Part shown: positions 2,893 to 35,842 of the stretch, in pieces
Position numbering within the stretch: the first letter of the stretch is position 1
Layout of the letters: every line of letters starts with the position of its first letter
Source of the DNA: Eledone cirrhosa
Taxonomy: Eukaryota
Reading direction: 5' to 3'
NCBI GenBank assembly: GCA_964016885.1
Contig: OZ024743.1
Coordinates: forward strand, 161,882,001-161,946,000
DNA: 64,000 bases
Notes under the pieces: generated by a model
What the model saw: the letters and a program-made list of their open reading frames with translations, nothing else
What the model was told of the DNA's origin: nothing
Databases searched by the model: none
Made by a program: the position numbers and the translations under genes

Positions 2893-3177
2893 AAAATATG
2901 TAGTTTAGAAAGCCACAACAATGGAGATGGGAAATCTCGAGGTAGGAAGTGAGTGAGAAATAGGAGAAGAGTGAAAATTGAGAGAAACGAAAATGAAAAC
3001 AAAACAAAGGTAGAAGGGTTACCGTAGTGGAGATTTAATCCCAATATTTCGGGCTCACGCCCATCAACGGGGTTAAAGTTCGTTTCTCTCAATTTTCACT
3101 TTTCTCCTATTTCTCACTCACTTCCTACCTCGAGATTTCCCATCTGCATTGTTGTGGCTTTCTAAACTACGTATTTT
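2893..3177. repeat. Fold-back element with ~100-bp arms (2893-2991 / 3079-3177), probable PLE remnant
   Basis: AAAATATGTAGTTTAGAAAGCCACAAC...GAGAAACGAA is the reverse complement of 3079-3177; decayed hammerhead in the spacer. Confidence 0.85.
3034..3077 (-). ncRNA. Degenerate minimal hammerhead ribozyme
   Basis: TTTAACC-CCGTTGA(two changes from CTGATGA)-T-GGGC GTGA GCCC-GAAA-TATT-GGGATTAAA. Confidence 0.45.
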
Positions 3178-3220
3178 ACACATTTCACAATGCTTCAAGC
3201 AAACTTTAACACCCTCTTAT

Positions 3221-3241
3221 CATATATATATATATATATAC

Positions 3242-3273
<32 letters not shown>

Positions 3274-3303
3274 GTACATATATATATACATATATATATA
3301 TAC

Positions 3304-3370
<67 letters not shown>

Positions 3371-3408
3371 CATATATATATATATACATATATATATATA
3401 TGTACATA

Positions 3409-3446
<38 letters not shown>

Positions 3447-3452
3447 CATATA
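3221..3452. repeat. (TA)n microsatellite
   Basis: Seen directly. Confidence 0.98.
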
Positions 3453-3498
3453 TAATATAATAAATAAATAACAAAGAACGCTTATAGCATATGCATAT

Positions 3499-3556
3499 CT
3501 TTACTTGCTAACATTGTTTCATCCGCACTATAAGTGGGACTCATCAGAGCATAAAG
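3499..3556 (-). ncRNA. Type-I hammerhead ribozyme (left-arm copy)
   Basis: Exact reverse complement of 4871-4928. Confidence 0.8.
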
Positions 3557-4227
3557 GTTAATTACATACCATACAAGCAATAACAAATCCAAGACATTGA
3601 AGAATGAAAGGTAATAATAGACGATAGAGGATAAGAATAAAAATAAAAATAAAAATAAAAGTAAAAATAAAAATAAAAATAAAAATAAAAATAAGGGGTG
3701 CTATCAGTCACAGTTGGGCGGTGTGCTGTCAACATATAGTTACATACAAGCATACACATGGATAAGAGAACAGACAAGAGTAGACACATGGATAAGAGAA
3801 CAGACAAGAGTAGATAAGATAATGGGATTAGGTAAGAGTAGGTAAAAAATAGGTAAAAAACAGACTTATAATATATATAAAAAGAAATACAAAGAAATAC
3901 ATAACAAACTTACATATAAAATATAAAATATAGGGTAAGGAATGAGATAAAATAATATAAAATTAAAAATTAAAAATTATATACATAGAACATAATATAG
4001 TATAATCGTAAAATAAGATAAAATAAGGTAAACTAAAATCAAATAACATAGACTAAATTAAAATAATATATAAGATATAATTAAAATCAAATGTATAATT
4101 ATATGTATAATTAAATGTAATTAAATGTAATTAAATAAATAAATAAATAAATAAATAAAAATTAAATAAATAAATAAAATTAAAATTAAAATTTTAAAAT
4201 TTTAAAATTAAAATCTAAATTTAAATA

Positions 4228-4263
<36 letters not shown>

Positions 4264-4870
4264 ATAATGCGGTGACTTAATGGCTCTTGAAGCTATTTTT
4301 TTATATATCTTCTGTCTTTTTATATATATTTTGTATGCGCTACAACTGTGTCTGCTTGCTTTAACCTCACCTCGCTTGCTAATGCATGTGAATTCTTATT
4401 TTATCTTATTTTACGATTATACTATATTATGTTCTATGTATATAATTTTTAATTTTTAATTTTATATTATTTTATCTCATTCCTTACCCTATATTTTATA
4501 TTTTATATGTAAGTTTGTTATGTATTTCTTTGTATTTCTTTTTATATATATTATAAGTCTGTTTTTTACCTATTTTTTACCTATTTTTTACCTACTCTTA
4601 CCTAATCCCATTATCTTATCTACTCTTGTCTGTTCTCTTATCCATGTGTCTACTCTTGTCTGTTCTCTTATCCATGTGTATGCTTGTATGTAACTATATG
4701 TTGACAGCACACCGCCCAACTGTGACTGATAGCACCCCTTATTTTTATTTTTATTTTTATTTTTACTTTTATTTTTATTTTTATTTTTATTCTTATCCTC
4801 TATCGTCTATTATTACCTTTCATTCTTCAATGTCTTGGATTTGTTATTGCTTGTATGGTATGTAATTAAC

Positions 4871-4928
4871 CTTTATGCTCTGATGAGTCCCACTTATAGT
4901 GCGGATGAAACAATGTTAGCAAGTAAAG
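4871..4928 (+). ncRNA. Type-I hammerhead ribozyme (minimal)
   Basis: CTTTATGCT-CTGATGA-GTCC CACT TAT AGTG C GGAT-GAAA-C AAT G-TT-AGCA ag TAAAG: intact core, stems I and II pair, very short stem III. Confidence 0.8.
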
Positions 4929-5063
4929 ATATGCATATGCTATAAGCGTTCTTTGTTATTTATTTATTATATTACGGCTCTGTCCTCAGACATTGAGCTA
5001 ACCTCATACTGCCTGCTGGATAAGTGGAGTGTTATACACCCCTGATCCTTTCCCTAGCATACT

Positions 5064-5133
5064 ATATATATATACATATATATATATACGTATATATATA
5101 TATATACATATATATATATACATATATATATAC

Positions 5134-5164
<31 letters not shown>

Positions 5165-5165
5165 C

Positions 5166-5236
<71 letters not shown>

Positions 5237-5257
5237 CATACATATATATATACATAC

Positions 5258-5288
<31 letters not shown>

Positions 5289-5421
5289 CATACATATATC
5301 TATACATATATATATACATATATATATACATATATATATATTTATATATACATACATATATCTATACATATATATATATATACATATATCTATACATATA
5401 TATACATATATATATATATAC

Positions 5422-5497
<76 letters not shown>

Positions 5498-5531
5498 GTG
5501 TATATATATATATATATATACATATATATAC

Positions 5532-5564
<33 letters not shown>

Positions 5565-5603
5565 CATATATATACATATATATATATACATATATATATA
5601 TAC

Positions 5604-5672
<69 letters not shown>

Positions 5673-5687
5673 CATACATATATATAC

Positions 5688-5766
<79 letters not shown>

Positions 5767-5859
5767 TATATACATATACATATATATATACATATACATA
5801 TATATATATACATACATATATATATACATATATATATATATACATACATATATCTATAC

Positions 5860-5892
<33 letters not shown>

Positions 5893-5933
5893 AATATATA
5901 TATATAAATATATATACATATATACATATATAT
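5064..5933. repeat. Interrupted (TA)n microsatellite
   Basis: Seen directly. Confidence 0.99.
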
Positions 5934-6045
5934 CAGTAAATCAGACAAAGTTGGAATTCCTCTTATTAATATAATCTTCTATACACAATCATACACACCC
6001 GTGTATATTTACCTATCTATATCTATATACATATATATATATATA

Positions 6046-7140
6046 TACTCCTATACGCAGATGATCTAACGCTCATAGCTGAATCAATGGCTGAGCTAGA
6101 GAAGAAATTCCAAACATGGAAGCACGGCCTAGAATCAAAAGGCCTTAAAATTAACCTGGCTAAGACTAAAGTTCTAGTTTGTAAGAAAGAAAATAAGGCG
6201 GCGGTCCCATCTGGGAAATGGCTATGCTCAGTGTGTAGGAAAGGCGCAGGTAGAAACTCCATTTTGTGTCCCAAATGCAAAGTATGGGTGCATAAAAGAT
6301 GTAGTGGGATCACAGGTAAGCTAACTAAGAACATAGATTTTACATGTGGCCGGTGTTCTGGGGCAATAAGTAGCAGCAAGTGCCCACGAAATACTAGCTC
6401 TTTCAACTGCGCAGAGGGTTCTATAGAAATAGTGGACAGCTTCCGTTACCTGGGTGACAAAATCAGCAGTGGTGGAGGGTGCTCTGAAAGTACAGTAGCT
6501 AGAGTCAGAACTGGGTGGAAAAAGTTCAGAGAGCTTATACCTCTACTAGCCGCTAAAGGGTTCTCTCTAAAAATGAAAGGCAGGCTGTACGATGCCTACA
6601 TACGAACAGCAATGTTGCATGGCAGTGAGACCTGGGCATTGTGTGCAGAGGATATACGCAGACTAGAGAGAAACGAAGCTTGCATGCTCCGCTGGATGTG
6701 TAATAGTAATATATGTGAACGGCAAAGCATAAACGAACTAAGGAAAAAATTAGAAATAAGAGGGATCAGATGTTGTTTACTCGAGAGAAGGCTACGTTGG
6801 TATGGTCACGTGATGCGCATGAAGGACGATAGCTGTATAACAAAGTGCAGGGCAATAAAGATAGACGGTAGCCACGGAATAGGCAGACCCAGAAAAACCT
6901 GGGACGAGCTGATAAATTCCGACCTCACACACTTACACCTCACCAAGCCAATGTCACTGGACCGAGACCTTTGGCGGTACTCAGTAATAGAGAAGACCCG
7001 CCTTACCTAAATACAAAGTAAAACCTACTACAGACAGTAGGCATCTCTAACAAAATACACGCCCCCCCCCCCCCACATCCACACCGCCCCTTTCAATGTA
7101 AAGTTATGTTGGTGCCACAACATCCAGGCCGAAACAAATG
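6046..7140 (+). mobile_element. RTE LINE family A, 5'-truncated copy (YADD to partial 3'UTR)
   Basis: Starts LLYADDL; ORF 6087-7010 nearly identical to the C-terminus of 18303-20345. Confidence 0.95.
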
Positions 7141-10122
7141 GTCACGTTGGACAACATTGTGACGGCTATGACGGAATTCATGGAGGCTATGGGTTTGGTA
7201 CTAGAAATGAGGAAGGCTCCAGAATCCTGGAATTCTGTGACGCAAATAACCTAGCTATCTGTAACACTAACTTAAAAAAATGAGACAATCACTTGATCAC
7301 CTACAGATCAGGGGAACATACCAGCCAGGTAGATTATATCCTTACCAGAAGACGTGACAGAGTGTCTGTTGTAAACACTAAATCCCTCCCCCATGAAGAA
7401 TGCACCTCTCAACATAGACTGATAATTAGCGACCTCATAGTCAGGACGAGACGTACTCGACAACAGAAGAGGACTATCCTCAGGAGAAAAATATGGAAGC
7501 TAAAGGACCCCACAGCCAGTAATAAATTTAAAAGCATATTAGTTGATGCTTTCGACAGTAAGGAAGAGCAATTAGAGTCGTACAATATAGAGGAACAGTG
7601 GGGATTCCTGAAAGCAAACCTGCTGATGGCGGCAGATGAAGTCTGTGGCTGGAGCAGGCCTATAGGCAGGAGGAGAGTAACGTGGTGGTGGAACAGTAAG
7701 GTGGATGAGTCAATCAAGGCAAAAAAAAAAGGCTTGGAAAGTATGGCGGGATGGGGAAAGTAGAGAACACTATCAAGTGGCCAGGAGAGAAGCTAGGAGA
7801 CAAGTGTACTTTGCTAGAAGGGAAGCAGAGGAAAGAAAGTTCAAGCATGTTCTACAACGCGAGGACCAAAAGCGTGAGGTGTTCAGGATTGCTAGGCAAT
7901 GTGTCAAAGAAAACCGTGATATTGTCGGGGAGAAGTGTGTCCTTAATGATAATGGTGTACATGCCATCACTGACGCTGATAAGAAGGTAGCTTGGAAATG
8001 TCAATACGAAAGGCTACTAAATGAGGAGAATAAATGGGAGAAAGACAGTCTCCCCCACATCGATCCAATAGAGGGACCAGCAATGTTAGTCGAAGGTAGT
8101 ATAATAAGTAAGGTAATCAAAGATATGAAGACGGGTAAGGCGGCTGGGCCTTCGGAAATAGTTGCTGAAATGCTGAAAGCTTCTGGAACGGTGGGACACA
8201 CTATGGTCACCCGGATAGTAAACCAAGTCATACAGAATGGGCTTGTTCCGAAGGACTGGCGTAGCAGCATCATCATTAACTGCTACAAGCGTAAAGGAGA
8301 TCCCTACATAGGGGTAACTATAGAGGCATTAAATTAATGGACCAGGTCATGAAGGTCACAGAAAAAGTAATAGCGCAACTAATCAGAGAGCGAATTGATC
8401 TAGATGAAATGCAGTTCGGGTTTGTGTCAGGTAAAAGTACCACATATGCTCTTTTCATTGTACGACAACTACAGGAGAAGTACCTAGCTAAAAGGAAACC
8501 CCTATACTTAGCTTTTGTCGACTTGGAGAAAGCTTTTGACAGAGTCCCCCGTTCCATTATCTGGTGGGCTCTTAGAAAACTAGGTGTTGATGAATGGCTT
8601 GTGAGAGCTATACAAGCCATGTATAAAGAAACAGTCAGCAAGGTTAGAATTAACAACGAATATAGTGAAGAGTTTAGCGTAAAAGTTGGTGTTCATCAGG
8701 GCTCCGTTCTTAGCCCCATACTATTTATTATTGCCCTTCAGGCTATAACAGAGGAGTTCAAGACCGGTTTCCCATGGGAACTCCTATACGCAGATGATCT
8801 AACGCTCATAGCTGAATCAATGTCTGAACTAGAGAAGAAATTCCAAACATGGAAGCATGGCCTAGAATCAAAAGGCCTTAAAATTAACCTGTCTAAGACT
8901 AAAGTTCTAGTTTGTAGGAAGGAAAATAGGGCACCGGTCCCATCTGGGAAATGGCCATGCTCAGTGTGTAGGAAAGGAGTAGGCAGAAACTCCATTTTAT
9001 GTCCCAAATGCAAAGTATGGGTGCATAAAAGATGTAGTGTGATCACAGGTAAGCTAACTAAGAATATAGATTTTATATGTGGCCGGTGCTCTGGTGCAAT
9101 AAGTAGCAGCAAGTGCCCACGAAATACTAGCTCATTCCATTGCACAGATAGTTCTATAAAAATAGTGGACACCTTCCGTTACTTAGGTGAGAAAATCAGC
9201 AGTGGTGGAGGGTGCTCTGAAAGTACAGTAGCTAGAGTCACAACTGGATGGAAAAAGTTCAGAGAGCTTATGCCACTATTAGCCGCTAAAGGGTTCTCTC
9301 TAAAAATGAAAGGCAGACTGTATGATGCCTGCATACGAACAGCAATGTTACATGGCAGTGAGACCTGGACATTGTGTGCAGAGGATATACGCAGACTGGA
9401 GAGGAACGAAGCTTGCATGCTCCGCTGGATGTGTAATAGTAATATACGTGAATGGCAAAGCATAAACGAACTAAGGGAAAATTAGGAATAAGAGGGATCA
9501 GATGTTGTTTACTCGAGAGAAGACTACGTTGGTACGGTCACGTGATGCACATGAAAGACGACAGCTGTATAAAAAAGTGCAGAGCAATAAAAATAGACGG
9601 TAGCAACGGAGTAGACAGACCCAGAAAAACCTGGGACGACCTGATAAATTCCGACCTCACACACTTGCACCTCTCCAAGACAATCTCACTGGACCGAGAT
9701 CTTTGGCGCTACACAGTAATACAGAAGACCCGCCTTACCTAAGTACAAAGTGAAACCTACTACAGTTAATAGCACCTCTAACAAAAATACACCTCCGTCC
9801 CACTACCCCCACTCCATCCACACCACCCCTTTCAATATAAAGTTATGTTGGTACCACAACATCCAGTCCGAAGCAAATGAGGTCGTGTAGGTGTCACCTC
9901 AAAAAACACAGTCCACGCTGTAATGTGGCCGTGTAGGTAACACGGTAAAAACCTCCCAGTCCACACTGTAAACGTGGTTGGTGTTAGGAAGGGCATCCAG
10001 CCGTAGAAACCCCGCCAGACAGTCCTATGCGAGCAAGACAACCACTCTTGCTTCAAATGGGAAAACTCCCGTCCAAACCCATGCAAGCGTGGAAGATGGA
10101 CGTTAAACGATGATGATGATGA

Positions 10123-10125
<3 letters not shown>
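7136..10125 (+). mobile_element. RTE LINE family A, frameshifted copy (part of APE endonuclease + RT + 3'UTR + (GAT)n tail)
   Basis: SQVDYIL, QFGF, FVDLEKAFD, GVHQGSVLSP and YADD motifs across ORFs at 7293, 7705, 8337 and 9452; tail GACGTTAAACGATGATGAT then (TA)n. Confidence 0.95.
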
Positions 10126-10188
<63 letters not shown>

Positions 10189-10464
10189 ATAATAATAAAT
10201 TTGAAGACTAAAATCCAAAGAGGGCTCGATAAAGATAAATTTGTCTTTGCGTTGTTCTCCCCGTTCCACATATGATGTATTATCTTCGTTTTTTCCGTTC
10301 ATTGCCAGAGAACGTCTCTATGAACCACCTAATAGAATATATTAATCTAAGACATCTTTTATACCATAAACGTGGTTTTGTCTTTGCGTATAATTGTTTT
10401 TCACCGCTCCAAATAATTGTTTCTACTTTAGGCCAGCAATTTGCCAGTGCATTACTGGTACTCC

Positions 10465-10680
10465 AAATAATGACGTATTATATTCGTTTTTTTTTTCGTC
10501 CTTTGCCAGGGAACGTTTCCACGAACCAAAGTATCGTCTTCCTGTCTTCCTCCGGTTGCAACGTTTTTTGAAATATTTACTTCTGCGTTCACAGATTGAC
10601 TTTGTTAGTTTCAGAAGATCCCGTTAACGGTGAAAGCAGCGATTCTTTGCTTAAACTTTAATGTTATTTTAATAAATATA
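10465..10680. repeat. Unclassified dispersed repeat (also at 22527-22660 and 28645-28850)
   Basis: GTGAAAGCAGCGATTCTTTGCTTAAACTTT shared; reverse-complement match to 28645-28850. Confidence 0.75.
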
Positions 10681-10684
10681 TATA

Positions 10685-13747: not shown

Positions 13748-13764
13748 TATATATATATATACAT

Positions 13765-14196
13765 ATATTAAAATACAAATATTAATAAAATATTTCAGAG
13801 GTACAACAGTACGTCCTCATCAGACAAAATATAATGATACATGACATACCCTGAGATGTTAATTCAAGAGACGTTTTCCTAGATAACCATAACTTGTAGT
13901 ATCCCACATTTTAAAATCTCTATATCTGTCACATTAAGCAACGTTTTTCTTACTCATACATCCTCAATTGAATTTATTACGTTTTCGCATTTTCTCATTA
14001 TTAGGGTATAAATGTTGAATTTTCTCTTAGGTTAATCGCTATCTTGATTAAATCTTAACCATTTAACATCTCAGGGTATGTCATGTATCATTATATTTTG
14101 TTTGATGAAGACGTACTGTTGTACCTCTGAAATATGTATAATAAAAGTTAATTGACCAAAAGAACATCTATTTTATTAATATTTGTATTTTAATAT
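13765..14196. repeat. Fold-back element (arms 13765-13862 / 14062-14196) with hammerhead motifs
   Basis: Reverse-complement arms; the left arm lacks ~37 nt present in the right arm. Confidence 0.8.
14096..14146 (+). ncRNA. Hammerhead-like motif (C3>U in this copy; minus copy at 13790-13829 has CTGATGA but is truncated)
   Basis: TTTTGT-TTGATGA-AGA c GTAC tgtt GTAC c TCT-GAAA-TATGTA-TA-ATAAAA. Confidence 0.6.
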
Positions 14197-14303
14197 TAAT
14201 AACTCTGGAACCTTTTTTATCAGTAGAGTGCTTCCAATCTACTGTAAAACTCATTCTTTGATGTACTCATTGAATCTTGTTTAACTCTTTAATATATATA
14301 TAC

Positions 14304-14334
<31 letters not shown>

Positions 14335-14439
14335 CATATATATTCTTTAGGTAAACATTGATGCAATTCCATTCAAGCACTCAACGTACTTTTTCCACAT
14401 AGGAGTGATGGAGTATATATTGAATAAGAAAAAGCGAAG

Positions 14440-15440
14440 TAGTTTCAGATGTTAAAGTCCTTTAATGATAATGCTGTGATACATATTTCAATGACGACAG
14501 TGGCCACACGGTTCGGTGAGCCCAGTGCTGTGACATCATCAGACAGCTTCTTACATAATAAGGTTATGTTTCCGAGGCAATCCAAATTGAATCGACATGG
14601 GAACGGACAAAGCGTGTGCTCTTGAATTCTTCGCCCATTCCCCTGTGAGTCCCAATTCACCCCCACCGGTCTGTGCAGTCGCAAGTCCGAAGGAAGTTGA
14701 CCATTAACTACCCCAAAGTTCTACGAAATTCGCCTAGGCAGAGTTGTAAGTTTCAGGAGTCATGGTATATAGATTTTTGGTTTTGTCAGACATGTAAGAG
14801 GCGGCTATCCTTAAATTTTTTTATAGTTGTTGCTAATTTTGTGAGGAAATTATTCTTGTGTCTATAATGCTTTTTGAATTTAATGCTCCTGATGAAGTTA
14901 AATAGATCTTTCTCAAAAGGGTCCAGCAGGATGTTGTGTGGAGGGTTCTTGCAGGTGGTAAATCCATATCTCTTTGCTGTACTTCCGGCGTCAGCAGCAC
15001 CCTCATGGTCGAAGTGGAAGGCCTTCTATCGTATTCTTCGGATGAAAGAGTTGACACTCTGTATTAGGAGTTTGAGGTAGGTCTTCCTGTCCGGGATAGG
15101 AATGGACTTAAGTGATATCCTGAGTTCCTCAACATGGTTACTTCTAACAGTTAATAGTTCAACTACGGGAGCTCAAGTATACACAGTTCAAGAGTAACCA
15201 ATCTTAAAGAGAGATATGGAGATAGGAGAGGAGAAGAGAGATTGGTGAATTAGTTAGAAGCCAAAGCGTAAAGGCATGTGCTCAATGTGCAATATGCAGT
15301 AGAAAGCAGCTAGGTGGCTGGGTTCATGCAGATGTTAGATGCACAGAGCTGGAAATATTCATTAGTTAAGCAAAACAAGACCACAAATTTCACAAGGAAG
15401 ACATTATTTAAAGATTGTCAACATATTTTAATTTAATGTA
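14440..15440 (-). mobile_element. Internally deleted Penelope-like element (ORF N-terminus joined to the pLTR)
   Basis: Minus strand reads SLKSIPIPDRKTYLKLLIQSVNSFIRRIR*KAFHF...YGFTTCKNPP...LDPFEKDL...DKTKNLY, resembling the PLE ORF N-terminus; hammerhead downstream; inverted copy of 15178-15277 at 16683-16780. Confidence 0.75.
14473..14547 (-). ncRNA. Type-I hammerhead ribozyme with long, imperfect stem II
   Basis: GCTGT-CTGATGA-(TGTCACAG...CTGTCGTCATT)-GAAA-TATGTA-TC-ACAGC; perfect 5-bp stem I, AUC site. Confidence 0.7.
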
Positions 15441-16476: not shown

Positions 16477-16926
16477 TAAGAATGTAAAGAATAATAATAA
16501 TAATAATAATAATAATGTCCGTTTACAATTGTTTCGCTACTCCATATAATGTTTCTGGATCAAATGATTATAGATCATTATTGATCTGGTTCAGTTGAAG
16601 ATAATTAACTTAGGTAAAATTGGAGCAGTTCATCGGAACTTCAAAAGGAATATAAATTAAGGTAAAAAAAAATTACCTTAATTGCCGTTACGCCTTGGCT
16701 TCTAACTAATTCACCAATCTCTCTTCTCCTCTCCTATCTCCATCTCTCTCTTTAAGATTGGCTACTCTTGAACTGTATATAGATATATACATATATATAT
16801 GGATGTATATATAATGTATTTTGCAATACACTTTATGCTTAATTAAAAGCATTTTGAAGACCGTAAGCTATTGTTTTAAAGTAGTGACAAATTCACTCAC
16901 TTTGATCTCAGCAAACAGGGGAGATA

Positions 16927-16970
16927 AGCCGACAAGTCTTGTTTCGCTTTGGTTGAAGCTTATCAAGGCC
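16927..16970 (-). ncRNA. Hammerhead ribozyme, U3-A8 variant (copy)
   Basis: Reverse complement of 17267-17310. Confidence 0.75.
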
Positions 16971-17266
16971 AACTACCCCACCTGTTTACTGAGATCATTG
17001 ATGTTATATTCTTATAGAAATCTAGTAAATAATCAGGAGCTGATTATGCAGAGCGGTTGTTGGTCAGGCAGAAATTAAAAATTAGAATTGGAGCTCTGAA
17101 ATAGCAATATATATATGGATGTATATATAATGTATTTTGCAATACACTTTATGCTTAATTAAAAGCATTTTGACCAACAACCGCTCTGCATAATCAGCTC
17201 CTGATTATTTACTAGATTTCTATAAGAATATAACATCAATGATCTCAGTAAACAGGTGGGGTAGTT

Positions 17267-17310
17267 GGCCTTGATAAGCTTCAACCAAAGCGAAACAAGA
17301 CTTGTCGGCT
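17267..17310 (+). ncRNA. Type-I hammerhead ribozyme, U3-A8 core variant
   Basis: GGCC-TTGATAA-GCTT caacca AAGC-GAAA-CAAG a CTTG-TC-GGCT; GUC site. Confidence 0.75.
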
Positions 17311-17491
17311 TATCTCCCCTGTTTGCTGAGATCAAAGTGAGTGAATTTGTCACTACTTTAAAACAATAGCTTACGGTCTTCAAAATACTTTTAATTAAGC
17401 ATAAAGTGTATTGCAAAATACATTATATATACATCCATATATATATTGCTATTTCAGCGCTCCAATTCATATATATATATATACATATATA

Positions 17492-20744: not shown

Positions 20745-22425
20745 TTGTTTTGCAAGGTTTTTGATATGAAATCGTGTGTCAAAACAAATATTGTTATACT
20801 TGGGGAGGGTCATATTGTAATATTGCCAGAAATAATAACAGAACACAGTCACTGTTTGGTTGGTTTTCACTTCTGTATCTTTTATATAACCATAGTTAAT
20901 TTATTTGGCAATCAATGTTTATCATTGATTGACCAGTGGTTAAAAATACAGATATAAATCTATATATTTATAGTCAATCAAAGTTCTTTCGTTGCACATC
21001 TGCAACATCATCAGTGGTACTATTATGTTCCCTCCTATTGTATTGTAATGTCTACGCCATTTCTATTTTATTTATTTATTTATTTATTCTTGTCCCTATC
21101 TTTGCACATGCATTTGCGTGTGTGTATAATGTTTGGTGTGTGTGTTCGCGTTTGAGTGTATGTGTTTTTGTTTTTGTATTCTATCTTTGTTTAATAGTGT
21201 GTGTTTATATGTGTTTGTTATTATTGTGCTTGTGTATATATTTATTGATTTATTTATTTATATTTCCCTTAAGTCAGTATTGTTGTTTGGGTATGGTTGT
21301 TGTTGTTATTCCATTCATTTTTTCTGTTTAACTTTGGTCTTCTTCGGTCTATCTCCTTTGCTTCTCTGATTTACCTACCTGTTGAGTCATTTCTATGTTT
21401 AGATACTATTTTAATTTCTATGTTGTCTATATTATCGTCATGTCTTTGTCTGACGTGTTCGTATAGTACTGAACCGGTTTTTTGTCCTTTTAGTTCCCCC
21501 CTGTATTGGTCTATTCTTTCTGCTATTCTTTGAGCAGTCTCACCTATGTATGTCGGTGTCATGTTTCTGCAAGTACCCTCTGTACATCTTATGCTATAGA
21601 CTACATTTCTAGTTTTACAGTTTATCTGGGGGGTTCATTTTACATATAACACATATCTTAGTACAGTGGGTTTTCTTAAAGGGGTATGTTTTGCTAATCA
21701 GAGATTTTATGGTAGTTCCTGGCTTTTCTACCACTTTAATCTTTAAATGGGTCTTTCTTAGGACCTTTCTACATTGGTTAGCTAATTTCCCTCCAGGGGT
21801 AGCATCCACGAACATGACACTCTTGTATCTCTGGTTGTTGTACCATGAAGTGGCTTTCCCTATCTTATGTTTAGTTCTAGCTAAGCTATTCCATGATTTG
21901 CTCTTGTATAATGAGCAAATTCCTTTCATGTCCATTTCTGTGAGGGTCTTATACTTCTCCGTGACTCTTTGTATACTCTGATTCTGTCTCTTTGGTTGTA
22001 GCCAGAGAACTGCAGTTGATGAAGTGTTGGATGTGTCTTTCCATTTCAGTTGGGTCGCACATGCGGGACACATTCTTCATCACTCTTACCAAGTCTGCGA
22101 TCAGAATATTAAACTTAACACTATTGGACATTGCTGAATTTTTGAGTATCAGGTATTTGGAGGCCATGGGTTTAGCATAGTGTGAGTGGAGAATTTGGGC
22201 CCTCTCGTCTATAGTGTAAATGCAGAGTTCCGTGTCTAATACTAGTAGTCTATTGTTAGGGTATTTGGAAAGGTAGTCAACAGTTACAGTTATACTCTGG
22301 TGTATGGAGTTAGCTATCTGCTGGATGCTCTCCATTGTGCTATTTTCTAAATCATGTTTATTAGTACTATCTTGTGGAGGTGTTCTTATTACTATATTAA
22401 TATCGTCTACATAACGAGAGTACAT
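20745..22425 (-). mobile_element. Penelope-like element, 5'-truncated and degraded (RT C-terminus + GIY-YIG endonuclease + pLTR)
   Basis: YSRYVDDI (RT), VMFVDATPGGKL, C-x-x-C, RNVVYSIRC...PTYIGET...R...H...IREAKEI...LNRKNEW (GIY-YIG). Confidence 0.92.
20971..21022 (-). ncRNA. Hammerhead ribozyme motif in the PLE 3' pLTR
   Basis: TAGTACCA-CTGATGA-T-GTTGCA gatg TGCAAC-GAAA-GAAC-TT-TGATTGACTA; stem I imperfect. Confidence 0.7.
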
Positions 22426-22732
22426 GTACATACACACCTACCCCAAAATGTTATATATATATATATTTATTAAAATATATATATTTATTAAATATATATA
22501 TATATATATAACATTTTGGGGTATATATATATTTATTAAAATAACAGATTAAAGTTTAAGCAAAGAATCGCTGCTTTCACCCTTAACGGGTGTATCTTCC
22601 CGTTAAGGGTGAAAGCAGCGATTCTTTGCTTAAACTTTTATCTGTTATTTTAATAAATATTTGCTCTACGGTTCTTATATATTTGATATATATTTATCCT
22701 TATTGAGCCCCCTAGGGGTGTATGTATATGTA
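22421..22732. repeat. Nested hairpins (22438-22523; 22527-22660; outer 22421-22440 / 22712-22732)
   Basis: ...AAAGTTTAAGCAAAGAATCGCTGCTTTCACCCTTAACGG followed ~10 nt later by its reverse complement. Confidence 0.85.
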
Positions 22733-25956: not shown

Positions 25957-26261
25957 ATATACCAGGATTGCTGGATTATGAACAATCATACAAACTGGAA
26001 AATTTGCATTTTGATAAATTTATGGTTTGCATAAAAGAAACCTTATAGTTTATGTTGATTATTAACAGGTAGAAGGATTAAAGATAAAAATAATATTTTA
26101 ATAATTTTTTTCTAGGATGTAATTATATAAATTTCAGTATATATGTACAAATGACATACAGGATTAAATGTATAAATAATTTTGGAGAATAACTATTTAC
26201 AAGGACAACCTGGTGATTGGAAAGAGAACTTATCATTGTAGCAACATGACTGATATATGAA

Positions 26262-29200
26262 ATGCATTATATGGCAACTTCAATCACCCTGAGATTGATT
26301 GGGAAACCTTTCGTTGGCCACAGAGTGCAAATGATTTGCTTGAGCTAGTATTGGACTTGAGCTGGTCCCAACTAGTCACCTCCCCTACAAGACGTGACAA
26401 CACGTTGGATCTGCTTTTTACCACTACTCCCAAAACAGTTATTAGTGTCATTATTAAGGAATCTTTAGGTAACTCTGATCATGCTATGATCATTGCCAAT
26501 CTGTCTCTTATTGGCAGTAACAAAAACCGCAACCATTTCCAAACTGCTCGCTTTGACTGGAAGAAAGCAGACTGGAACTCTTACTGCACTGAGCTACAAC
26601 GCCCAAACTGGCTTGAATTTTACGACTCTGGGGATGTGAACACTATACTTCAGAACATCCTGAACTCAATATGGACAGCATGTGCAGCATCAGTACCATG
26701 TAAGCACATAAAACATCCCAAAAGTGCAATTTGGGAGACTGCAGCAGTCCGACTTGCCAGGAAAGAACGTTGTAATGATACATAGGAATTCAAACTACAT
26801 AGATCAGATATCAAAAGAAAAAAGCACAAAACAGTGCATAGCAAACAACCCTGACAGCAAAGTGTTCTGGAAATGTGTACATTCAAAGCAGAGACCTCAC
26901 TCTCCAGTTGGTCCTCTTCGCAATCCGCAAACAAGCCAGATTACTGACGATCCCAAAGAATGCGCAGAACTTATTGCTGAATGCTATGCAGGCATTTTTA
27001 CTGTTGAAAACTAAAACAAACATCTTCACCACTTCTGACATCAAATTCTATAACAACTATGGAATTTACACCTGCAATACTGCGATGTCACCTTAAGAAT
27101 AAGTGTAACTATGCCTCTCCTGGTCTTGATGGTGTTACATACCTGCTTCTCAAACGTGGTGGGTACTTTCTTCCACACCAGCTTTCACTCTTCTTTCAAT
27201 TCTGTCTTAACAACGGTGCTACTCTGGAGCAGTAGAAAACTGCCAGTGTCATTCCTCTGTTCAAAAAGGGTGACCGCACATCGCCTGTCAATTATCATCT
27301 AGTCAGTCTTACTAGTTGCATCGCCAAACTGATGGAATCCTGTGTCAGAGAAACACTCTGGAACTTCTGGAATTCTCACAGCCTTATCAAGCCCTTGCAA
27401 TTTGAATTTATCCCTAACTCCAGCTACTGTGATCAACTCATCGAGTTTCTTGAAGACATTACCTTGATCACTGATGGTCGATCATGGGTGGATGTTGTTT
27501 ATCTTGACTTTGCAAAAGCTTTTAATTGTGCCTCACAAAAGAATTATGGCAAAACTCTCTGCAATTTTTATGAGAGATGATCTTTTTAACTGGTTGGAGC
27601 CCTTCACCCTATAAGATGACATCTGGTGTACCACAGGGATCTGTTCTTGGTGCCTTTTCATTTGTTGCATACATTAATGACATAGATGCCAACTTAAAGA
27701 ATGCCACAGTGCAGAAATATGCAGATGGCATCAAGCTGTACCATGAGATAAAAAGGACAGATCCTGAACACTATATACAATGCAGGCTGTGGACAAGTGT
27801 ACTACCATGCATTTTTAGAGGAAAAACCCAGTGTCCACATACTCCCTCCACAACACTAATATCAAGAAGTCTTCTTGTGAATGTGACCTGGGCATTACTG
27901 CCAGCAGTGATTTGCGTTGGACAAAGCACAACTCTAAAATTGTCAAGAAGGCTGAGGGTGTCTTAGCATCACTCAGCAAGATCTTTGTCAGCCGCTCTCC
28001 AGCTATCTATTTAAAGATGTACTAGCAGTGGTACCCGGCGTTTCACAGGGTAAGGTATTTTGGAACGCGGGCCGCCAACAGACCTAATCGTGGAAAAACT
28101 GCATGCTTGGACAATATGTAAAGAAAATAAACCGAATACTCTGATGGATGGATAATCTAAGATTTTCCTCGATGAAGCAGGAAAAAGGCAGGTTTTCACC
28201 CTAGGAGATCAAGAAAATGAATTTTTTTTATGTGCATAATATACCTTGAAATTTCGGAAAAATTGACTAGACGCAACGCCTCAAAAAAGCCCTAAAAAGC
28301 TTTAAAAAATTAAGTTTTAATGCGGGCCCTAGGCCATAGAAAAAGTTGGATTTTCTTTGCTCACGAAGAAGAGACTGACTAATACAATGTTACAATTTCA
28401 AGGAAATCAGTCTGACGTAATGCCTCAAAAAACCCCTAAAAGTGCTGGAAAAAACGCAGTTTTTCCCCTAGACGATCAAAAAGTTGAATTTTTTATGTGC
28501 ATAGCACTCCCTGAAATATATGTAATACACATATAAAGTTTGAAAAAGATCGGTTGGGTACCTCTCGGGTTTCACACACACACACACATACACATACACA
28601 CATACATACATACATCCTTCCTCAGTTTTATATACATATATAGATTAAAATAACAGATTAAAGTTTAAGCAAAGAACCGTTGCTTTCACCCTTAACGGGA
28701 TCTTCTGAAACTAAAAACATCAATCTGTGAAAGCAGAAGTAAATATTTCGAAAAACGTTGCAACCAAAGGAAAATAGGAAGATGATACTTTGGTTTGTCA
28801 AGACGTTCCCTGGCAATGAACGGATAATAGCAAACATAATACGTCATCAAAGTTCCTCAGAACGTCATAATGCAGACAGCCAGGCATACAGACAGATATT
28901 ATAAGGGTGCGACAGAGATGGATAACCGGCGCCTAACACCCCTTTAACAACAGAGAATTGAAAAATAAAAGCTGCAGTTAATATCTTTAGACCGCAAGGA
29001 ATATATAAATGCAAGTTTGAAGTCAATCGGAGTAGAAATGTGGATTTGTATAGACTTTGCAAAAATGAGGACACATGCAGACAACATCAGTTTTATATAT
29101 ATAGATATAGTTCTGGTGCAGCCACACTTAGAATTTACGTCACCAGTCTGGAAACCCTATCTTGCTCAGAATATTGACCTCCTGGAAACTGTTCAGAGAT

Positions 29201-29380
29201 GTGCAACTAAGTGAATCCCCTCCATAAGGCATCTACCATACTCTGAACACCATGCTTCCCTGGGCATGGATACATTGAAACTCCGATGTCTGGCAACTGA
29301 CTTGGTAAACACCCAATGCCTTTGATGAATTGTAGTGCACTTGAGCACTGTACACAATAATTTCATTATTATTATTATTA
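26262..29380 (+). mobile_element. CR1/L2-group LINE, degraded, interrupted by a Helitron
   Basis: GNFNHPEIDW, PTRRDNTLDL, GNSDH (APE); VYLDFAKAF, SGVPQGSVLG, YADG (RT); LVQPHLEFTSPVW; (ATT)n tail. Confidence 0.9.
28022..29105 (-). mobile_element. Non-autonomous Helitron (composite)
   Basis: Minus strand 5'-TCTATATATATAAAAC...CTAG-3' with a GC-rich subterminal stretch; inserted between A and T with no TSD; removal restores the CR1 frame K-M-Y-I-V-L. Confidence 0.9.
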
Positions 29381-29439
29381 AATTTTATAGAATTATGGAC
29401 AGAGAAATATATGAATATACAACACAAGTGGTGTATTAT

Positions 29440-29830
29440 CATGGTTGTAAAGTGCCCAGCCCACACTGTAAAGTGGTCATGTAGGTGTCACAACAAAAAA
29501 GCACCCAATACACACTGTAAAGTGATCAAGTTGGTGACACAACAAAAAGTGCCCTGCCCACACTGTAAAGTGATCATGTTGGTGTCACAACAAAAAAGCA
29601 CCCAGCCTATACTGTACAGTGGTTGTGTAGGTGTCATGACAAAAAGCACCCTGTACACACTGTAAATGAGGTTGTCATTAGGAAGGGCACCCAGCTGTAG
29701 AAACCAAGCCAGTACGAGTTCTGAATGATGAAGACACAATCACTTGATCTGAATGTCCCCTCAATGGGACAACTTATCTAACCTATGCTAGCATGGACAA
29801 ATGAATGTTAAATGGTGATGATGATGATTA
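29440..29830 (+). repeat. SINE/RTE-tail derivative with ~5 diverged tandem ~49-bp units
   Basis: Repeats of (AGCA)CCCAGCCCACACTGTAAAGTG...GGTGTCACAACAAAAAAG; ends in (GAT)n. Confidence 0.7.
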
Positions 29831-30615
29831 CAGTGTTGTGTAGTATGTATTGCAGTAGTGTTTGTAATGCAGTTACTGTGTAGTATATATTACAGTACAA
29901 TGCAGTTTATATTGTAGTGCATGTGTATTACATTGAAGTGCATATTCATCTATCCTTTCTATGTATGTCAGTTTATATCACAAGACAACATATTCCAAAC
30001 TTCCACTTTTAGTTTAGTCCAGTCAACTGACACACCATGGGGCGTAGCAACATTGCTTGGAAGGTGTATAGTGATGAGGGGAGTGCTTCTCTCTTGTTGT
30101 TATTATTATCAAAGTTGTTTATATGATGACACTTGAAGAGGTTGTTCAGCCTCTTATCTTCTGTATGAGACACACATTTAGTTGCTTGTTCATTGGTCAT
30201 TCATTGCTCTTATCACATGAGGGCATATGACACCATTTATACTTCCTATAGTTGTTATGATGTTAGTGGTGGTGGTGGTGGTGGTGGTGGTGGGGGTTGA
30301 CGATTGTCATGCTTGTTGTTATTGATGATGATAATAAATGCAATCCGAGTTTTTCGAATCATCATCATCATCGTTTAACGTCCATCTTCCACGCTAGCAT
30401 GGGTCTGGACGAGAATTGCCCCCACTTGAGGCAAGATTGGTTGTCTTGCTCAGGACTGTCTGGTGGGTTTTCTACAGCTGGATGCCCTTCCTAACACCAA
30501 CAGATATTAATAATAATATTCGATTCGTTTGCAATTATGCAAACAAGCCTCATTTTTAAAGCCATGTCAGTAGAATGAGCCCCTCATTCTTGCTCTTGTG
30601 TTGGCATGTAAACAG

Positions 30616-30663
30616 AACTGCAGACTCTAATGTTTCTGGGTATCACCCTTCATCAGTACAGCT
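30616..30663 (-). ncRNA. Hammerhead ribozyme (copy)
   Basis: AGCTGTA-CTGATGA-A GGGT gat ACCC A-GAAA-CATTAGAG-TC-TGCAGTT. Confidence 0.75.
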
Positions 30664-31063
30664 CACTGTTCACCTGCCAACTGTTAAAAGCTAGTGAAAA
30701 TATATGCTATTTTCTAAAATATACAGTGACTGATCAGCCTGATTTGCATATTAGCAGACTGGCTGATCAGTCATATCTGCATATTAGCAGATCCACTGAT
30801 CAGCCAGATTTACCTATCAGCAGACAGGCTAGTCAGTTTCCTGTATATGAGCGATTAATGGCCGACTTTGCCATATTTAAATAAATCTTTTAAAAATTTA
30901 TCTCTCTACATGGCTGAATACAATAAATGCAATCCGAGTTTTCGAATATTAATAATAATATTTGATTCATTTGCAATTATGCAAATCAGGCTGATCAGTC
31001 ACTGTATATTTTAGAAAATATTATATATTTTCACTAGCTCTGACAGTTGGCAGGTGAACAGTG

Positions 31064-31111
31064 AACTGTACTGATGAAGGGTAATACCCAGAAACATTAG
31101 TGTCTGCAGTT
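31064..31111 (+). ncRNA. Type-I hammerhead ribozyme
   Basis: AACTGTA-CTGATGA-A GGGT aat ACCC A-GAAA-CATTAGTG-TC-TGCAGTT; 7-bp stem I, GUC site. Confidence 0.85.
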
Positions 31112-31539
31112 CTGTTTACATGCCAACACAAGAGCAAGAATGAGGGGCTCATTCTACTGACATGGCTTTAAAAATGAGGCTTGTTTGCATAATTGCAAAC
31201 GAATCGAATATTATTATTAATATTCGAAAAACTCGGATTGCATTTATTGTATTCAGCCATGTAGAACGATATTTTTTTTTTTTCATGATGATGATAATGA
31301 TATTTCTTTTTTGATTGAGAATCAGATGATTTTTTTAGGTGATACTCTGGTGTTGATACTGGTTTTTGATGTTGTTGTTCAACAACAATAACAACAGCAG
31401 CAACAGCAACAGTAGCAACAACATCATCATCATCATCATCATCATCAACAACAACAGCAACTACATAAATAATACCAATAATGATTACTTTGCTTTGATT
31501 CCAAGGATAATTTTAATAGTCATGAAGATATCTCAGTAA

Positions 31540-33798
31540 GCAAGAGATGGAATGAGACATACAGGAAGGTGTGGAGAAGAAAGGTCTGGAAGCTAAAAAA
31601 CCTTTCACTAAAATACAAATTTAGGAAAGCCCTTCAAGATGTGTATGACGAAAAAGAAGACGATTTAGAGACGTATGACATAGATAATAACTGGAATTTC
31701 TTATGTGACAACTTACTGCAGCCTACTGATGAAACTTGTGGCTGGAGCAGAGCTCCAACCAGACAGAGAGTGACCTGGTGGTGGGACAGCACAGTAGATA
31801 AGGCCATTAGAGACAAAAGACTAGCATGGAAGGCTTGAAAAAAGGGTGGGAGTAGAGAAAGATATACAGCCGCTAAGAGAGAAGCTAGATGTCAGGTGTA
31901 CTTAGCATGCAGGGAGGCTGAGAGTAGGAGGTTTGCCAATGTTCTGCGACGGGAAGATCAGAGGCGTGCGGTGTTCCACATTGCAAGGCAGTGTGTCAAT
32001 GCAAATCAGGATATTGTTGGAGATAAATGTGTCCGGAATGATGCCGGTGTACTTAGTGTCACGAATGATCAGAAAAAGGAGGCCTGGAAATGTCATTATG
32101 AGAGACTGATGAATGTGGAGAACGAATGGGAGAGAGAGAAATTACCCTTAGTAGATCCGACAGAGAGACCAGCTATTGAGATTGACGAATATACGGTCCA
32201 AGAGGCAATTCAGGAAATGAAAAAAAGGTAAGGCCGCTGGACCGTCGGGGATAGTTGCTGACATGCTGAAGGCATCAGGTGACGTAGGCACTAAACTGGT
32301 TGCACGCATCATCAATCAGGCTATATATGGTGGTGTCATACCCAAAGGCTGGTGCAGCAGTATTCTCATAAATTGCTACAAAGGTAAAGGGGATGCTCTG
32401 GAGAGGAGCAATTATAGGGGTATAAAACTGATGGATCAAGTTATGAAAGTGGCAGAAAGGATATTAGCACAACTAATTAGAGAAAGGGTCAAACTAGATA
32501 AGATGCAGTTTGGTTTTGTGCCTGGGAAGAGTACAACAGATGCCCTCTTCTTGGTGAGACAATTACAAGAGAGGTTCTTAGAGAAAAATAAGCCACTACA
32601 CTTAGCCTTTGTTAACCTAGAGAAGGCCTTTGATAGGGTACCCCGATCTGTCATCTGGTGGTCCCTAACGAAACTAGGTGTTGAGGAATGGCTTGTGAGG
32701 ACAGTGCAAACTTTGTACAGAGGTGCTGTCAGTAAAGTCAGGGTAGGAATGGAGTTTAGTGAGGAATTCCAGATACAAGTAGGAGTACATCAAGGTTTGG
32801 TCCTCAGCCCGCTCTGGTTCATTATAGTCCTCCAAGCCATAACAGAGGAGTTTAAGACTGGCTGTCCATGGCAACTTCTCTATGCTGATGATCTGGTTCT
32901 TATAGCAGAATCAGTAGAGGAGCTAGGGAATACATTCTGGTGATGGAAACAGCAGTTGGAAGCAAGAGCACTGAGAGTGAACCTAGCTAAGACAAAAGTG
33001 TTGATGAGCAGAAAAGAGGACAAACTCTGATTCCATCAGTGAAATGGCCATGTTCAATATGCAGAAAAGGAACTGGCATAAATTCTATAAAATGCACACA
33101 ATGCAGATCCTGGGTACACAAGAGATGTAGTCGGGTAGCAGGAAACAGGTAGGGAGAAATACGTATGCAGTAGATGTACAGGGAAATTAGACAGTAGAAG
33201 TCGCATTGATAGACAGATTTTTCAAATGCAGCCGGGTGGTATAGAAGTACCTAGGAGATTAGATTAGCATGGGAGGGGGGTGTTCCGAAGCCATAGTATC
33301 TAGAATAAGGACGGGTTGGAAGAAGTTTAGGAAGCTGCTTCCTCTGCTGATGAAGAAGGGTTTCTCCCTGCGTACGAAAGGCCGGTTATATGATGCCTGT
33401 GTGAGGAGTGCGATGCTGCATGGTAGTGAGACATGGGCAGTAACTGCAGAGGATATGCGACGGCTGGAGAGAAATGAGGCAAGCATGCTCCGTTGGATGT
33501 GCAATGTCAATGTGCGTGAACAACCCAGCATGGATGTGTTGAGAGAGAAACTGTGTCTGAGAGGGATAGAATGTAGTGTGCAGGAGAGGAGACTGAGTAT
33601 GGACATTTGATGCGCATGGAGGATGACCAATGGGTGAAGAAGTGCCAGGAAATGCCAGTTGAAGGAAGACATGGTAGAGGTAGACCACGAAAAACATGGG
33701 CAGAGGTGGTGAGAACAGACCTCAGATTGCTGAAGCTCACGGTGGAGATGACGAAGGACCGTGACAAGTGGGAAAAGCGGACGTATGATGATGATGAT
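31540..33798 (+). mobile_element. RTE LINE family B, degraded
   Basis: VTWWW, QFGFVPGKST, VHQGLVLSP, YADD and PHD-like cysteines; many stops and frameshifts; (GAT)n tail. Confidence 0.93.
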
Positions 33799-34159
33799 AG
33801 TAGCATTGAATTCCTACACAAATCAAGAGAACAGTCTTATTCCTCACCAGTTCTATACAAGAACAGCACACAATTGAAGGTTTTGAAATTAAAGAACAAC
33901 ATTCAACTCAATGTCTCTACAAAATATTTTCTGCTCTATCTGGTGATGCTACAACTACATCACACAGACTTAACTTACTATTTTAGGACAAGAAATACTC
34001 CTACCTTGGTCAGTTGCTGACCATCCATAAAGTTCACAGAGTACTGCTCACATATCTCTAACCATTGGCTTACAGACGTGCTACTGTCTGTTGCTTTTGT
34101 CTTTTTTATTCACATAATTATTGCTTTGGTGGAATGGCTGAATCTGTAGAGCATTGAAT

Positions 34160-34350
34160 AGTAATTTTGGGGAAGGGGAAAGTTGATTTAAATCGAACCC
34201 AGTACATGACTGGACCTTTATTTTAATGACCCCATAAGGATGAAAAGTAAAGTTGATCCCAGCAGGATTTGAACTCAGAATGTAAAAACCCAGAACAAAT
34301 ACCACAAAGCATTTTGTCAGGTGTTCTAACAATTCTGCCAATCTACCACC
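34160..34350 (-). mobile_element. Abundant SINE family (TTTCATCCTTA(C/T)GGGGTC core), minus copy
   Basis: Reverse complement of the copies at 48650, 52455 and 56690. Confidence 0.7.
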
Positions 34351-35112
34351 CTCCTCTTTTTATAATTATAATGACTTGGTAATTTGATTAAATATTTGTC
34401 CCACCCTTGCAAGCAGGGAAAAAGCGGACGTAAAATGAAATGAATGAATGAATGAATTTGTAGTTGCTTTAAAACCAAACAAATGATCCACAACTAGATA
34501 ACCTGCACAATCCATCTCTTTCTTTCTTCTTGTCTGTCAGCCCTACAGAGTCTCACTGAGTGGCACAGGCATGATCATCACCATTTAACGTCTGCTTTCC
34601 CTGCTAGCAAGGGTTGGACAAGTCTATATAGACTAAGTCAGTACTGAAGCAGAGCCACTGACATCCCAGACAAGCCAGGGAGGTCTGTATCCTGCTTAGA
34701 TACAGTCATTTTCAAGTGCAAAGGAGTTGTCTCTTTTGACACAAACTGAAGAATCCTTCTAACTAGTGCTAAATACATATGATTTATGTATGAGATGTAC
34801 ATGATATATTAACAAGCAACAGAACAAAACAAAAGAACTAGAACTTGAGGTGAATACACCCACTCAAAATTGTAATATGTGGTAACTGGTCTGTCTTCCA
34901 TTCACGAGTGCCTTTATCAGAATTCACTCCATTGCAAGCATTTGCACCAGGTTTCTTGTCAAATGATAACTTCCTCCCTCTTGCCATCAGTATAAGAGGT
35001 ATGCATACATGCCATTGGTGCTGGCCCTACCCGTGTAACCATGTCATAACACCCCACCCCCACCCCCACCCACACACACACACACACAAACACTCTTCAA
35101 CAGTATTAAACA

Positions 35113-35312
35113 TTAACCTTTTTGATACCATCCCAGTCATAACCGGCTCTGATTCTATGAAACAAAACCACCCATTTGAAAGGTTTCCAATTTAAATTAC
35201 AATCTTCCAACATAATTTTGTATAAGAACCTTATATTAATTTACTATCTTAGTAATGAAATAATTAATAATTTTTGTAAATCCCTCAAAATTCTTCATCA
35301 ATTAATTGAAAT
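35113..35312. mobile_element. piggyBac-like MITE end (related to 63207-63447)
   Basis: TTAACCTTTTTGATACC terminus; reverse-complement similarity to 63240-63447. Confidence 0.5.
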
Positions 35313-35319
35313 GCACTCT

Positions 35320-35842
35320 ATTTACCTAATTTTTCCTCTTAGTCCGTAGAAATTAACTAGACAAATAATCAATTAAACGGAGCTAAGTTTAAAATGTAAG
35401 TTTGGAGAAATAATAGATAAATGTTACCAAAATATCCCCTAGTCTCGACTGTCGACAGTTTCGTTCGTACTTTGTAAAAATGTTTAATCGTTGCATTATC
35501 CATGAGGCTTCGAGTTTATCAAGAGACTCCCTCAGTTAGGTCTGAAATTTCCGAAGTGATCGCCGTTAGTAACGAATTCAAGAGGGTAGACCAGTGGCAA
35601 GTGAGTTCATAGTTAGTTACCGCCAAAAGTTTACTCAACCGCAAGGGATGACTATTTATCTAGTTAATTTTTACGGACTAAGAGGAAAAATTAGGTAAAT
35701 GTTGTCTGAGTGTTCTTCATAGAGGAATATCGATAACATTTATCTATTATTTCTTCAAAGTTACATTTTAAACTTAGCTCCGTTTAAATGATTATTTATC
35801 AGGTTAATTTCTACGGACTAAGAAGAAATTTTGGGTAAATTT
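35320..35842. mobile_element. PLE-type fold-back element with hammerhead
   Basis: 35320-35427 inverted at 35733-35842, with a partial copy at 35655-35700. Confidence 0.78.
35441..35528 (-). ncRNA. Hammerhead ribozyme, U3-A8 variant, palindromic stem III, long degenerate stem II
   Basis: AGTCTC-TTGATAA-(ACTCG...CGAAC)-GAAA-CTGTCGACAG-TC-GAGACT. Confidence 0.7.

Follow-up and report, generated by a model that had tools for sequence, protein, structure and literature searches.

Hammerhead ribozyme motifs at the ends of Penelope-like elements and in retrozyme-like units of the Eledone cirrhosa genome

Why should eight sequences with nothing else in common, all lying within one stretch of cephalopod DNA, each carry a hammerhead ribozyme (HHR) motif? 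The question is raised by a 64,000-nucleotide stretch of the Eledone cirrhosa genome (assembly GCA_964016885.1, contig OZ024743.1, positions 161,882,001 to 161,946,000 of the forward strand), the whole of which is called the window here and for which an initial annotation had listed eight hammerhead-bearing loci. The window is repeat-rich animal DNA with a GC content of 38%, containing RTE-type long interspersed nuclear elements (LINEs), repeats resembling short interspersed nuclear elements (SINEs) and (TA)n tracts, and the assembly totals 3.0 Gb. We named the loci A to H, following their order in the window; their motifs, family structure, links to open reading frames (ORFs), unit lengths, covariation and density are read directly from the DNA. 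The eight loci are very probably independent 5'-truncated, mostly 5'-inverted copies of eight families that have a type-I hammerhead motif at the 3' end; four would be ends of coding Penelope-like elements (PLEs), and the other four ORF-less units that probably depend on the same enzymes for copying. The annotation had posed PLE termini and non-autonomous units as an either/or, and both occur: A, B, C and F are PLE ends, and D, E, G and H are ORF-less.

The motifs were searched for with a regular expression of the core and a three-stem hammerhead descriptor with a score cut-off of >=14. This revealed eight matches in the window, compared with 0.06 per shuffle in 100 local shuffles. A, H and the minus copy of C escaped the descriptor and were recognised by eye, and F was found only with a relaxed descriptor, so that hammerhead motifs could be recognised at all eight of the listed loci. 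The conserved core (C3/U3-U-G-A-N-G8/A8-A, G-A-A-A, U-H) in a three-way junction was present in B to H, and A departs from it. The label 'minimal' that these hammerheads had been given is a loose one: in all but A, helix III is a palindrome of 3-5 bp, and stem II of D and H carries insertions of 46-53 nt. As had been claimed, the flanks share no sequence, since the eight 3' regions align only over chance matches of 12-17 nt. Inverted or partial-tandem repeats had been reported at seven loci; inverted copies were clear at six (A, B, C, E, G and H), and D and F are not fold-backs.

For each family, searches of the species' own genome returned between 660 and 3,527 first-look candidates; the best 40 were scored and 30 were fetched. 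The fetched copies are the closest ones, and the conservation figures are therefore biased upward. Every locus belongs to a repeat family with many copies. Per 30 copies, the core pattern was intact in 30 for A, B and E, 29 for C, 28 for D, 27 for F, 26 for G and 20 for H. In all eight families, the common sequence stops about 170-240 nt behind the core, mostly at (TA)n, whereas the 5' ends are ragged and many bear an inverted copy. Recurrence with fixed boundaries, a check that the annotation had proposed, was thus found at the 3' end, which runs into (TA)n in most copies of every family, together with variable 5' truncation. According to the accessible text of Craig et al. 2021 (PMC8557442), 5' truncation, inversion and (TA)n targets constitute the published insertion pattern of PLEs.

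In the families of A, C and F, a reverse transcriptase (RT) followed by a GIY-YIG endonuclease (EN) was found upstream on the hammerhead strand, as in EN-bearing (EN+) PLEs; in that of B, only the EN was found. For A, 12 of 30 loci carry an RT-GIY-YIG frame upstream in the same orientation, the parent protein matches Pfam RVT_1 and, just below the cut-off, GIY-YIG, and one full-length copy (L258) shows the order HHR-ORF-HHR with a period of 3,270 nt. For C, the EN lies upstream on the same strand in all five 10-kb stretches, two of which (L241, 4,069 nt; L242, 3,751 nt) show HHR-ORF-HHR, and the ORF possesses all four marks of the Hydra clade: RWRA (RWK-like), DKT, a CxCX5C linker and CxxC/CxH in the EN. 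In the window, the minus copy of C has lost the cleavage site and the 3' strand of stem I by deletion, and the plus copy (14102) carries a C3U change. Two of nine long stretches of B (L252 and L255) are collinear over 2.9 kb (97%), from a Hydra-type GIY-YIG C-terminus to the hammerhead, with the CxCX5C linker and the EN motifs (CxxC/CxH) present. Judged by motifs, with no tree, the parents of B and C appear to belong to the Hydra clade. Locus F holds broken RT-EN frames within the window, 88% collinear with another copy (L223), and 5 of 30 loci have an ORF upstream in the same orientation. Partial tandems of the type pLTR-ORF-pLTR (pLTR, pseudo-long terminal repeat; L258, L241 and L242), 5' truncation and inverted 5' copies were all present in these PLE-end families. 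In Pfam, the Hydra-clade and window F fragments were unrecognised, 4 of 6 proteins having no match.

Six loci had been described as lacking any ORF. For three of these the description fails: they are ends of coding PLEs that seem ORF-less because they are truncated, and the remaining three are ORF-less units. The Hydra-clade 3' regions measure 1.2-2.3 kb here, so that flanks of 1.5 kb at first hid the ORFs of B and C. B was first suspected to be an ORF-less element of 1.8 kb or else a palindrome with a fixed centre, and both readings were rejected, as longer copies reach the EN and the inversion centres vary; no direct tandem was present among the B copies seen. In one fold-back copy of B (L257:3078-3925), the inversion junction holds an L1/Tx1-like RT fragment that is unrelated to B and about 850 nt long, which suggests a template switch between RNAs.

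The other four loci belong to families in which hammerheads recur on the same strand at unit length: about 1375 nt for D, 316 nt for E, 438 nt for G and, less certainly, 557 nt for H. ORF-less tandem units with one type-I hammerhead each are clear for E, whose 316-nt period runs in arrays of at least 11 copies in 3.2 kb and whose pattern has 4,310 matches in the genome against 0 for the control. For G (438-440 nt, longest ORF 35 codons) and D (1,375, 1,384 and 1,315 nt) they were seen in few loci, 3 of 30 each, and for H only as partial tandem pieces spaced by about 557 nt, in 4 of the 7 loci inspected. Compared with ten PLE protein pieces, the units of D, E, G and H gave no match, and their longest ATG frames span 28-86 codons. 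Judging from this DNA architecture, the four families appear to be retrozyme-like and to fit the published non-LTR (long terminal repeat) retrozymes. The annotation had tied the motif directly to PLE coding remnants at two loci; this holds for the one at 20745 (F), which has its own ORF inside the window. At 14440 (D), the ORF is that of another PLE family: the link of D to the adjoining ORF was rejected, as 19 of 19 other copies cease to match the window at 14740-14742. A Hydra-type ORF 1.3 kb behind a further D copy (L248), with other repeats in between, was not counted as linked. The coordinates are collected in the table.

Table. Hammerhead-bearing loci of the window and the PLE fragment beside locus D (positions in the window).
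Feature	Position	Strand	HHR core (strand)	Remarks
A, 3' end of RT-GIY-YIG PLE	2892..3223	PLE end, minus		PLE end 2892-3081, inverted piece 3079-3223; 97-99% to pLTRs of L258
A, hammerhead-like motif	3039..3072	minus	first core base 3070	C-N-G-U-U-G-A-U, 4-bp stem II, GAAA-UAU-U
B, fold-back, long 3' region of putative Hydra-clade PLE	3453..5058		3547 (-), 4880 (+)	
C, fold-back pLTR of putative Hydra-clade PLE	13777..14299		13823 (-), 14102 (+)	91-95% to pLTRs of L241, L242
D, 5'-truncated copy of ORF-less ~1.38-kb unit	14327..14741	minus	14542	46-nt stem II
Hydra-clade PLE fragment (ORF start)	14741..15440	minus		distinct from D though abutting
E, fold-back of 316-nt ORF-less monomer	16791..17460		16966 (-), 17271 (+)	U3-A8 cores
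F, 5'-truncated RT-GIY-YIG PLE with 3' HHR	20788..22427	minus	21014	
G, fold-back of ~438-nt ORF-less unit	30504..31283		30656 (-), 31071 (+)	canonical cores
H, older ORF-less family	35320..35899		35522 (-)	U3-A8, 53-nt stem II, fully palindromic helix III; inverted pieces 35649-35846

Several observations concern the surroundings or relatives of these families. The Hydra-clade fragment next to D continues at 16480-16781, has its own inversion (15178-15276 versus 16683-16781) and is split by an RTE insertion; as C, D and E are nested around it, at least six elements are stacked in the region of 13.7-20.7 kb. An array of seven 482-492-nt units with a hammerhead (L286:456-3366; G000:C11:15000001-15010000) is 72-78% similar to units beside this Hydra-clade fragment family (L302, L307 and L316), and is possibly a further retrozyme-like family derived from the end of that PLE. 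Contigs 95-100% identical to family E (window 16816-17128) were present in two sequencing runs labelled as other organisms (X5 and X6), with C and D absent or nearly so, which could reflect host material or a wider spread of E. In one H copy (L140, about -700 to -100 from the core), 130-nt repeats holding (CCCTAA)n telomere-like runs lie upstream of the hammerhead.

Covariation among genomic copies, also proposed as a check, was seen in both of the families that were formally counted (E and H, two of the eight). Eight E sequences keep 97.8% of pairs, with 5 compensatory pairs over stems I, II and III (covariation score 0.316 versus 0.157 shuffled), and at least five fully paired versions of stem II occur among 100 genome matches listed. 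In H, 30 copies keep 93.4% of pairs, with 4 compensatory pairs in 13 cells versus 5.6; a G-C to A-U swap that keeps the helix III palindrome in 8 copies was probably a single event. A similar picture emerged from a sample of 39 10-kb stretches at round coordinates (389.4 kb). Here, cores picked without a stem I requirement numbered 54 versus 9.6 shuffled, and in 34 of the 54, stem I forms four or all five of its 5 possible Watson-Crick pairs, compared with 0 of 54 when slid by three and 0.25 per shuffle. From these sequence comparisons, we conclude that the hammerhead structure is under selection. Folding gave z -5.3 for the G motif, and z -6.6 and -10.1 for the E and G monomers as circles (40 shuffles).

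Is the density of about one motif per 4 kb, as given in the annotation, a trait of the window? The sample revealed that it is not: elsewhere in the genome, 46 matches were found in 389 kb (0.75 when shuffled), in 21 stretches, making up about 22 motif clusters and 32 insertions with 8 inverted pairs. Extrapolation gives a total of 354,000 (bootstrap 215,000-500,000). One subclass was counted directly genome-wide, with 80,656 exact matches versus 193 for the reversed pattern. Because the sample had predicted 107,709 for this subclass and thus overshoots, the total was taken as 2-3.5 x 10^5. The sample is biased in that E is over-sampled (3 matches) and A under-sampled (0 matches). A hammerhead motif occurs about every 8-12 kb across the genome.

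The core of A (near 3034) had been regarded as decayed, a view not borne out by its family: the odd core is fixed in 30 of 30 loci and has 4,484 exact genome matches versus 0 for the control, in a pattern with four stem positions left free. Among 100 matches listed, almost all are of two versions, GGGC/GCCC and GGAU/AUCC, and the latter belongs to a sister PLE with a compensatory stem II and a protein about 60-70% identical to that of A. Compared with the canonical core, U4 is changed to C/A and A6 to U, and an alternative register lacks G8-A9. The best register, as we infer it from the sequence, would keep C3-G8, G5, A9, G12-A14, A15.1-U16.1, G10.1-C11.1, GAAA and a stem I of 3-4 bp; the extra base ahead of stem II is retained. 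In the window copy, stem I is clipped by the inversion junction. Single natural changes U4C and A6C are known and slow the ribozyme, according to the accessible text of PMC3088659. The double change at positions 4 and 6 was not found in the texts searched, with figures and some supplements, where such a variant may be listed, outside the search; nor was an A-type core seen in the searched portions of supplement file 2 of PMC4209133 or of the supplement of PMC8557442. The A motif may be a slow ribozyme or a relic.

How such copies would arise can be proposed from the cited work, from which we take nicking, priming, the inversion route, cleavage, circles and the kind of PLE that would mobilise D, E, G and H. 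The GIY-YIG endonuclease of a PLE would nick (TA)n, and the RT would prime on the 3' terminus of the RNA, some 170-240 nt past the hammerhead, and copy toward the 5' end. Early termination would leave short ends, fold-backs would come from second-strand priming or a template switch, and head-to-tail arrays would form where copying continues through tandem or circular RNA. Multimeric transcripts would be processed to unit length by the hammerhead, which would probably act as a dimer via the palindromic helix III, and the short units (E and G) would circularise.

Several points weigh against this account. The RT part of the parent of B was not seen, the unit length of H is uncertain, and no autonomous partner of D, E, G or H was found in a shallow search of 319 loci (1.43 Mb), so that the dependence of these units on PLEs is read from their architecture. 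The cleavage position is U in B and F, and F has a fixed C-A mismatch in stem I, both signs of a weak motif; as monomers, six of the eight motifs fold no better than shuffles (z -2.2 to +1.1), which makes folding uninformative for them. In addition, PLE and retrozyme hammerheads often cleave poorly, with 1 of 9 dimers active in the accessible text of Li et al. 2026 (bioRxiv 10.64898/2026.07.22.740005). These last points bear on the reading that the hammerheads are for the most part inactive relics, or hairpins that bind protein and are retained because they lie in the 3' end that the RT recognises, and that cleavage plays no part. The weak or variant cores in the young, successful families A, B and F speak for it, as do the low in vitro activity of minimal PLE hammerheads (PMC4209133, accessible text) and the spread of Naiad PLEs without HHRs (PMC8557442, likewise). 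The catalytic residues, however, are invariant and the stems freely covarying across many families, with swaps between C3-G8 and U3-A8 and palindrome-preserving changes in helix III, and we hold this reading to be unlikely.

It could also be argued that all eight loci are ends of autonomous PLEs and that the short periods of D, E, G and H reflect part of a pLTR duplicated locally in tandem, given that long 3' regions masked the ORFs of B and C and that only the best 40 matches per family were scored. The periods, however, recur at unlinked loci (316 nt for E at at least 8 contig positions, 438-440 nt for G at three, 1375-1384 nt for D at two) in units with no PLE coding match, which renders this explanation quite improbable. 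That the motifs are chance matches in AT-rich, repeat-rich DNA, or a local cluster with a special cause, can be given almost no credence. An Rfam scan of the window did find nothing at threshold, with only HH9 on two E copies (24 bits versus 52, E 0.15), but the excess over controls in the window, in the 39 stretches and genome-wide refutes chance, and the arbitrary stretches led us to reject a local cluster.

Other repeats in the window include broken gag/pol-like frames at 37200-42700, from one or two oppositely oriented copies of LTR retrotransposons, and a small palindromic repeat resembling miniature inverted-repeat transposable elements (MITEs) in three copies (22524-22663, 10497-10684 and 28633-28822), with a perfect 88-nt hairpin at 22551-22638. 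A minisatellite of 40 nt x 25 lies at 47269-48278, and a self-complementary tandem of 76 nt x 3.8 at 49781-50066.

What do these results mean? The annotation had held that the novelty would be lost if every family were the truncated end of a catalogued autonomous PLE. This is half the case, with four plain PLE ends and four families that fit the published non-LTR retrozymes; since one half is thus plain and the other a published class, the novelty is much lower than had been held. The remaining interest lies in the motif count and in the atypical core common to two sister PLE families. We advance only tentatively, as a rather doubtful proposition, that the hammerhead of A and its sister PLE (proteins about 65% identical) works with a core changed at two positions, which current descriptors miss, and that no larger complement of hammerheads than that of this genome has been counted so far (2-3.5 x 10^5 motifs from dozens of families, with Hydra-clade PLEs and the retrozymes related to them in the lead). 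If cleaving, the fixed A variant would widen ribozyme searches. The young identical copies, arrays and many covarying subfamilies suit pooled cleavage assays that address whether PLE hammerheads are active in vivo, and the genome would, if all this is true, be a natural library for testing what they do. Retrozyme-like units with PLE-style truncation and inversion at (TA)n support mobilisation driven by PLEs.

In the literature on cephalopod genomes, a search leaving out most subscription journals found no paper on such hammerheads beyond a count for the giant squid genome, with 235 Rfam hammerhead matches; a 2026 annotation of octopus repeats includes active Penelope families and leaves ribozymes unmentioned. 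For scale, the genome of Schistosoma mansoni is about 0.4 Gb in size. Its Sm-alpha satellite accounts for about 38,500 hammerhead motifs and the axolotl has 126,247 (accessible texts of PMC2770079 and PMC7229834). These satellite hammerheads and ours are all of very high copy, but the estimate here is larger and spread over dozens of families. We claim no record density, S. mansoni being of the same order per base.

The class itself is already known. As far as its accessible text goes, Cervera & de la Pena 2014 (PMC4209133) describes hammerheads in pLTRs, motif pairs on opposite strands at distances of 100-700 bp, cores of the U3-A8 type and genomes with many families, and a derivation of retrozymes from PLE pLTRs has been proposed (PMC7229834; bioRxiv 10.64898/2026.07.22.740005; accessible texts). 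The comparisons that follow are with the accessible texts of these papers and of Craig et al. Like the metazoan EN+ PLEs of PMC4209133, the Eledone families have a hammerhead in the terminal repeat, an extra nucleotide after A9 and a palindromic helix III, occur mostly as single truncated copies, and comprise numerous unrelated motif families in one genome. They differ in having mostly a 3-5 bp helix III, a stem II of 46-53 nt in two families, 10^5 rather than 10^3 motifs, and a core in A that departs at two positions. B, C and the element beside D resemble the Hydra-clade PLEs of PMC8557442 in the C-terminal EN, the RWK-like motif, DKT and CxCX5C, as well as in the HHR, (TA)n targets and inverted 5'-truncated copies. 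That clade, however, was published as comprising few families, most of them short (<3 kb), whereas the units here measure 3.7-4.1 kb, with 3' regions as long as noted above, and are seemingly very abundant. Finally, E and G resemble the non-LTR retrozymes of Cervera & de la Pena 2020 (PMC7229834) and Li et al. 2026 in being ORF-less, low-GC, head-to-tail units of 300-450 nt with one type-I hammerhead each. The copies here differ in being known from DNA alone and in showing PLE-type 5' truncation and inversion at dispersed sites, and D, at 1.38 kb, exceeds the published retrozyme range of 51-972 nt.

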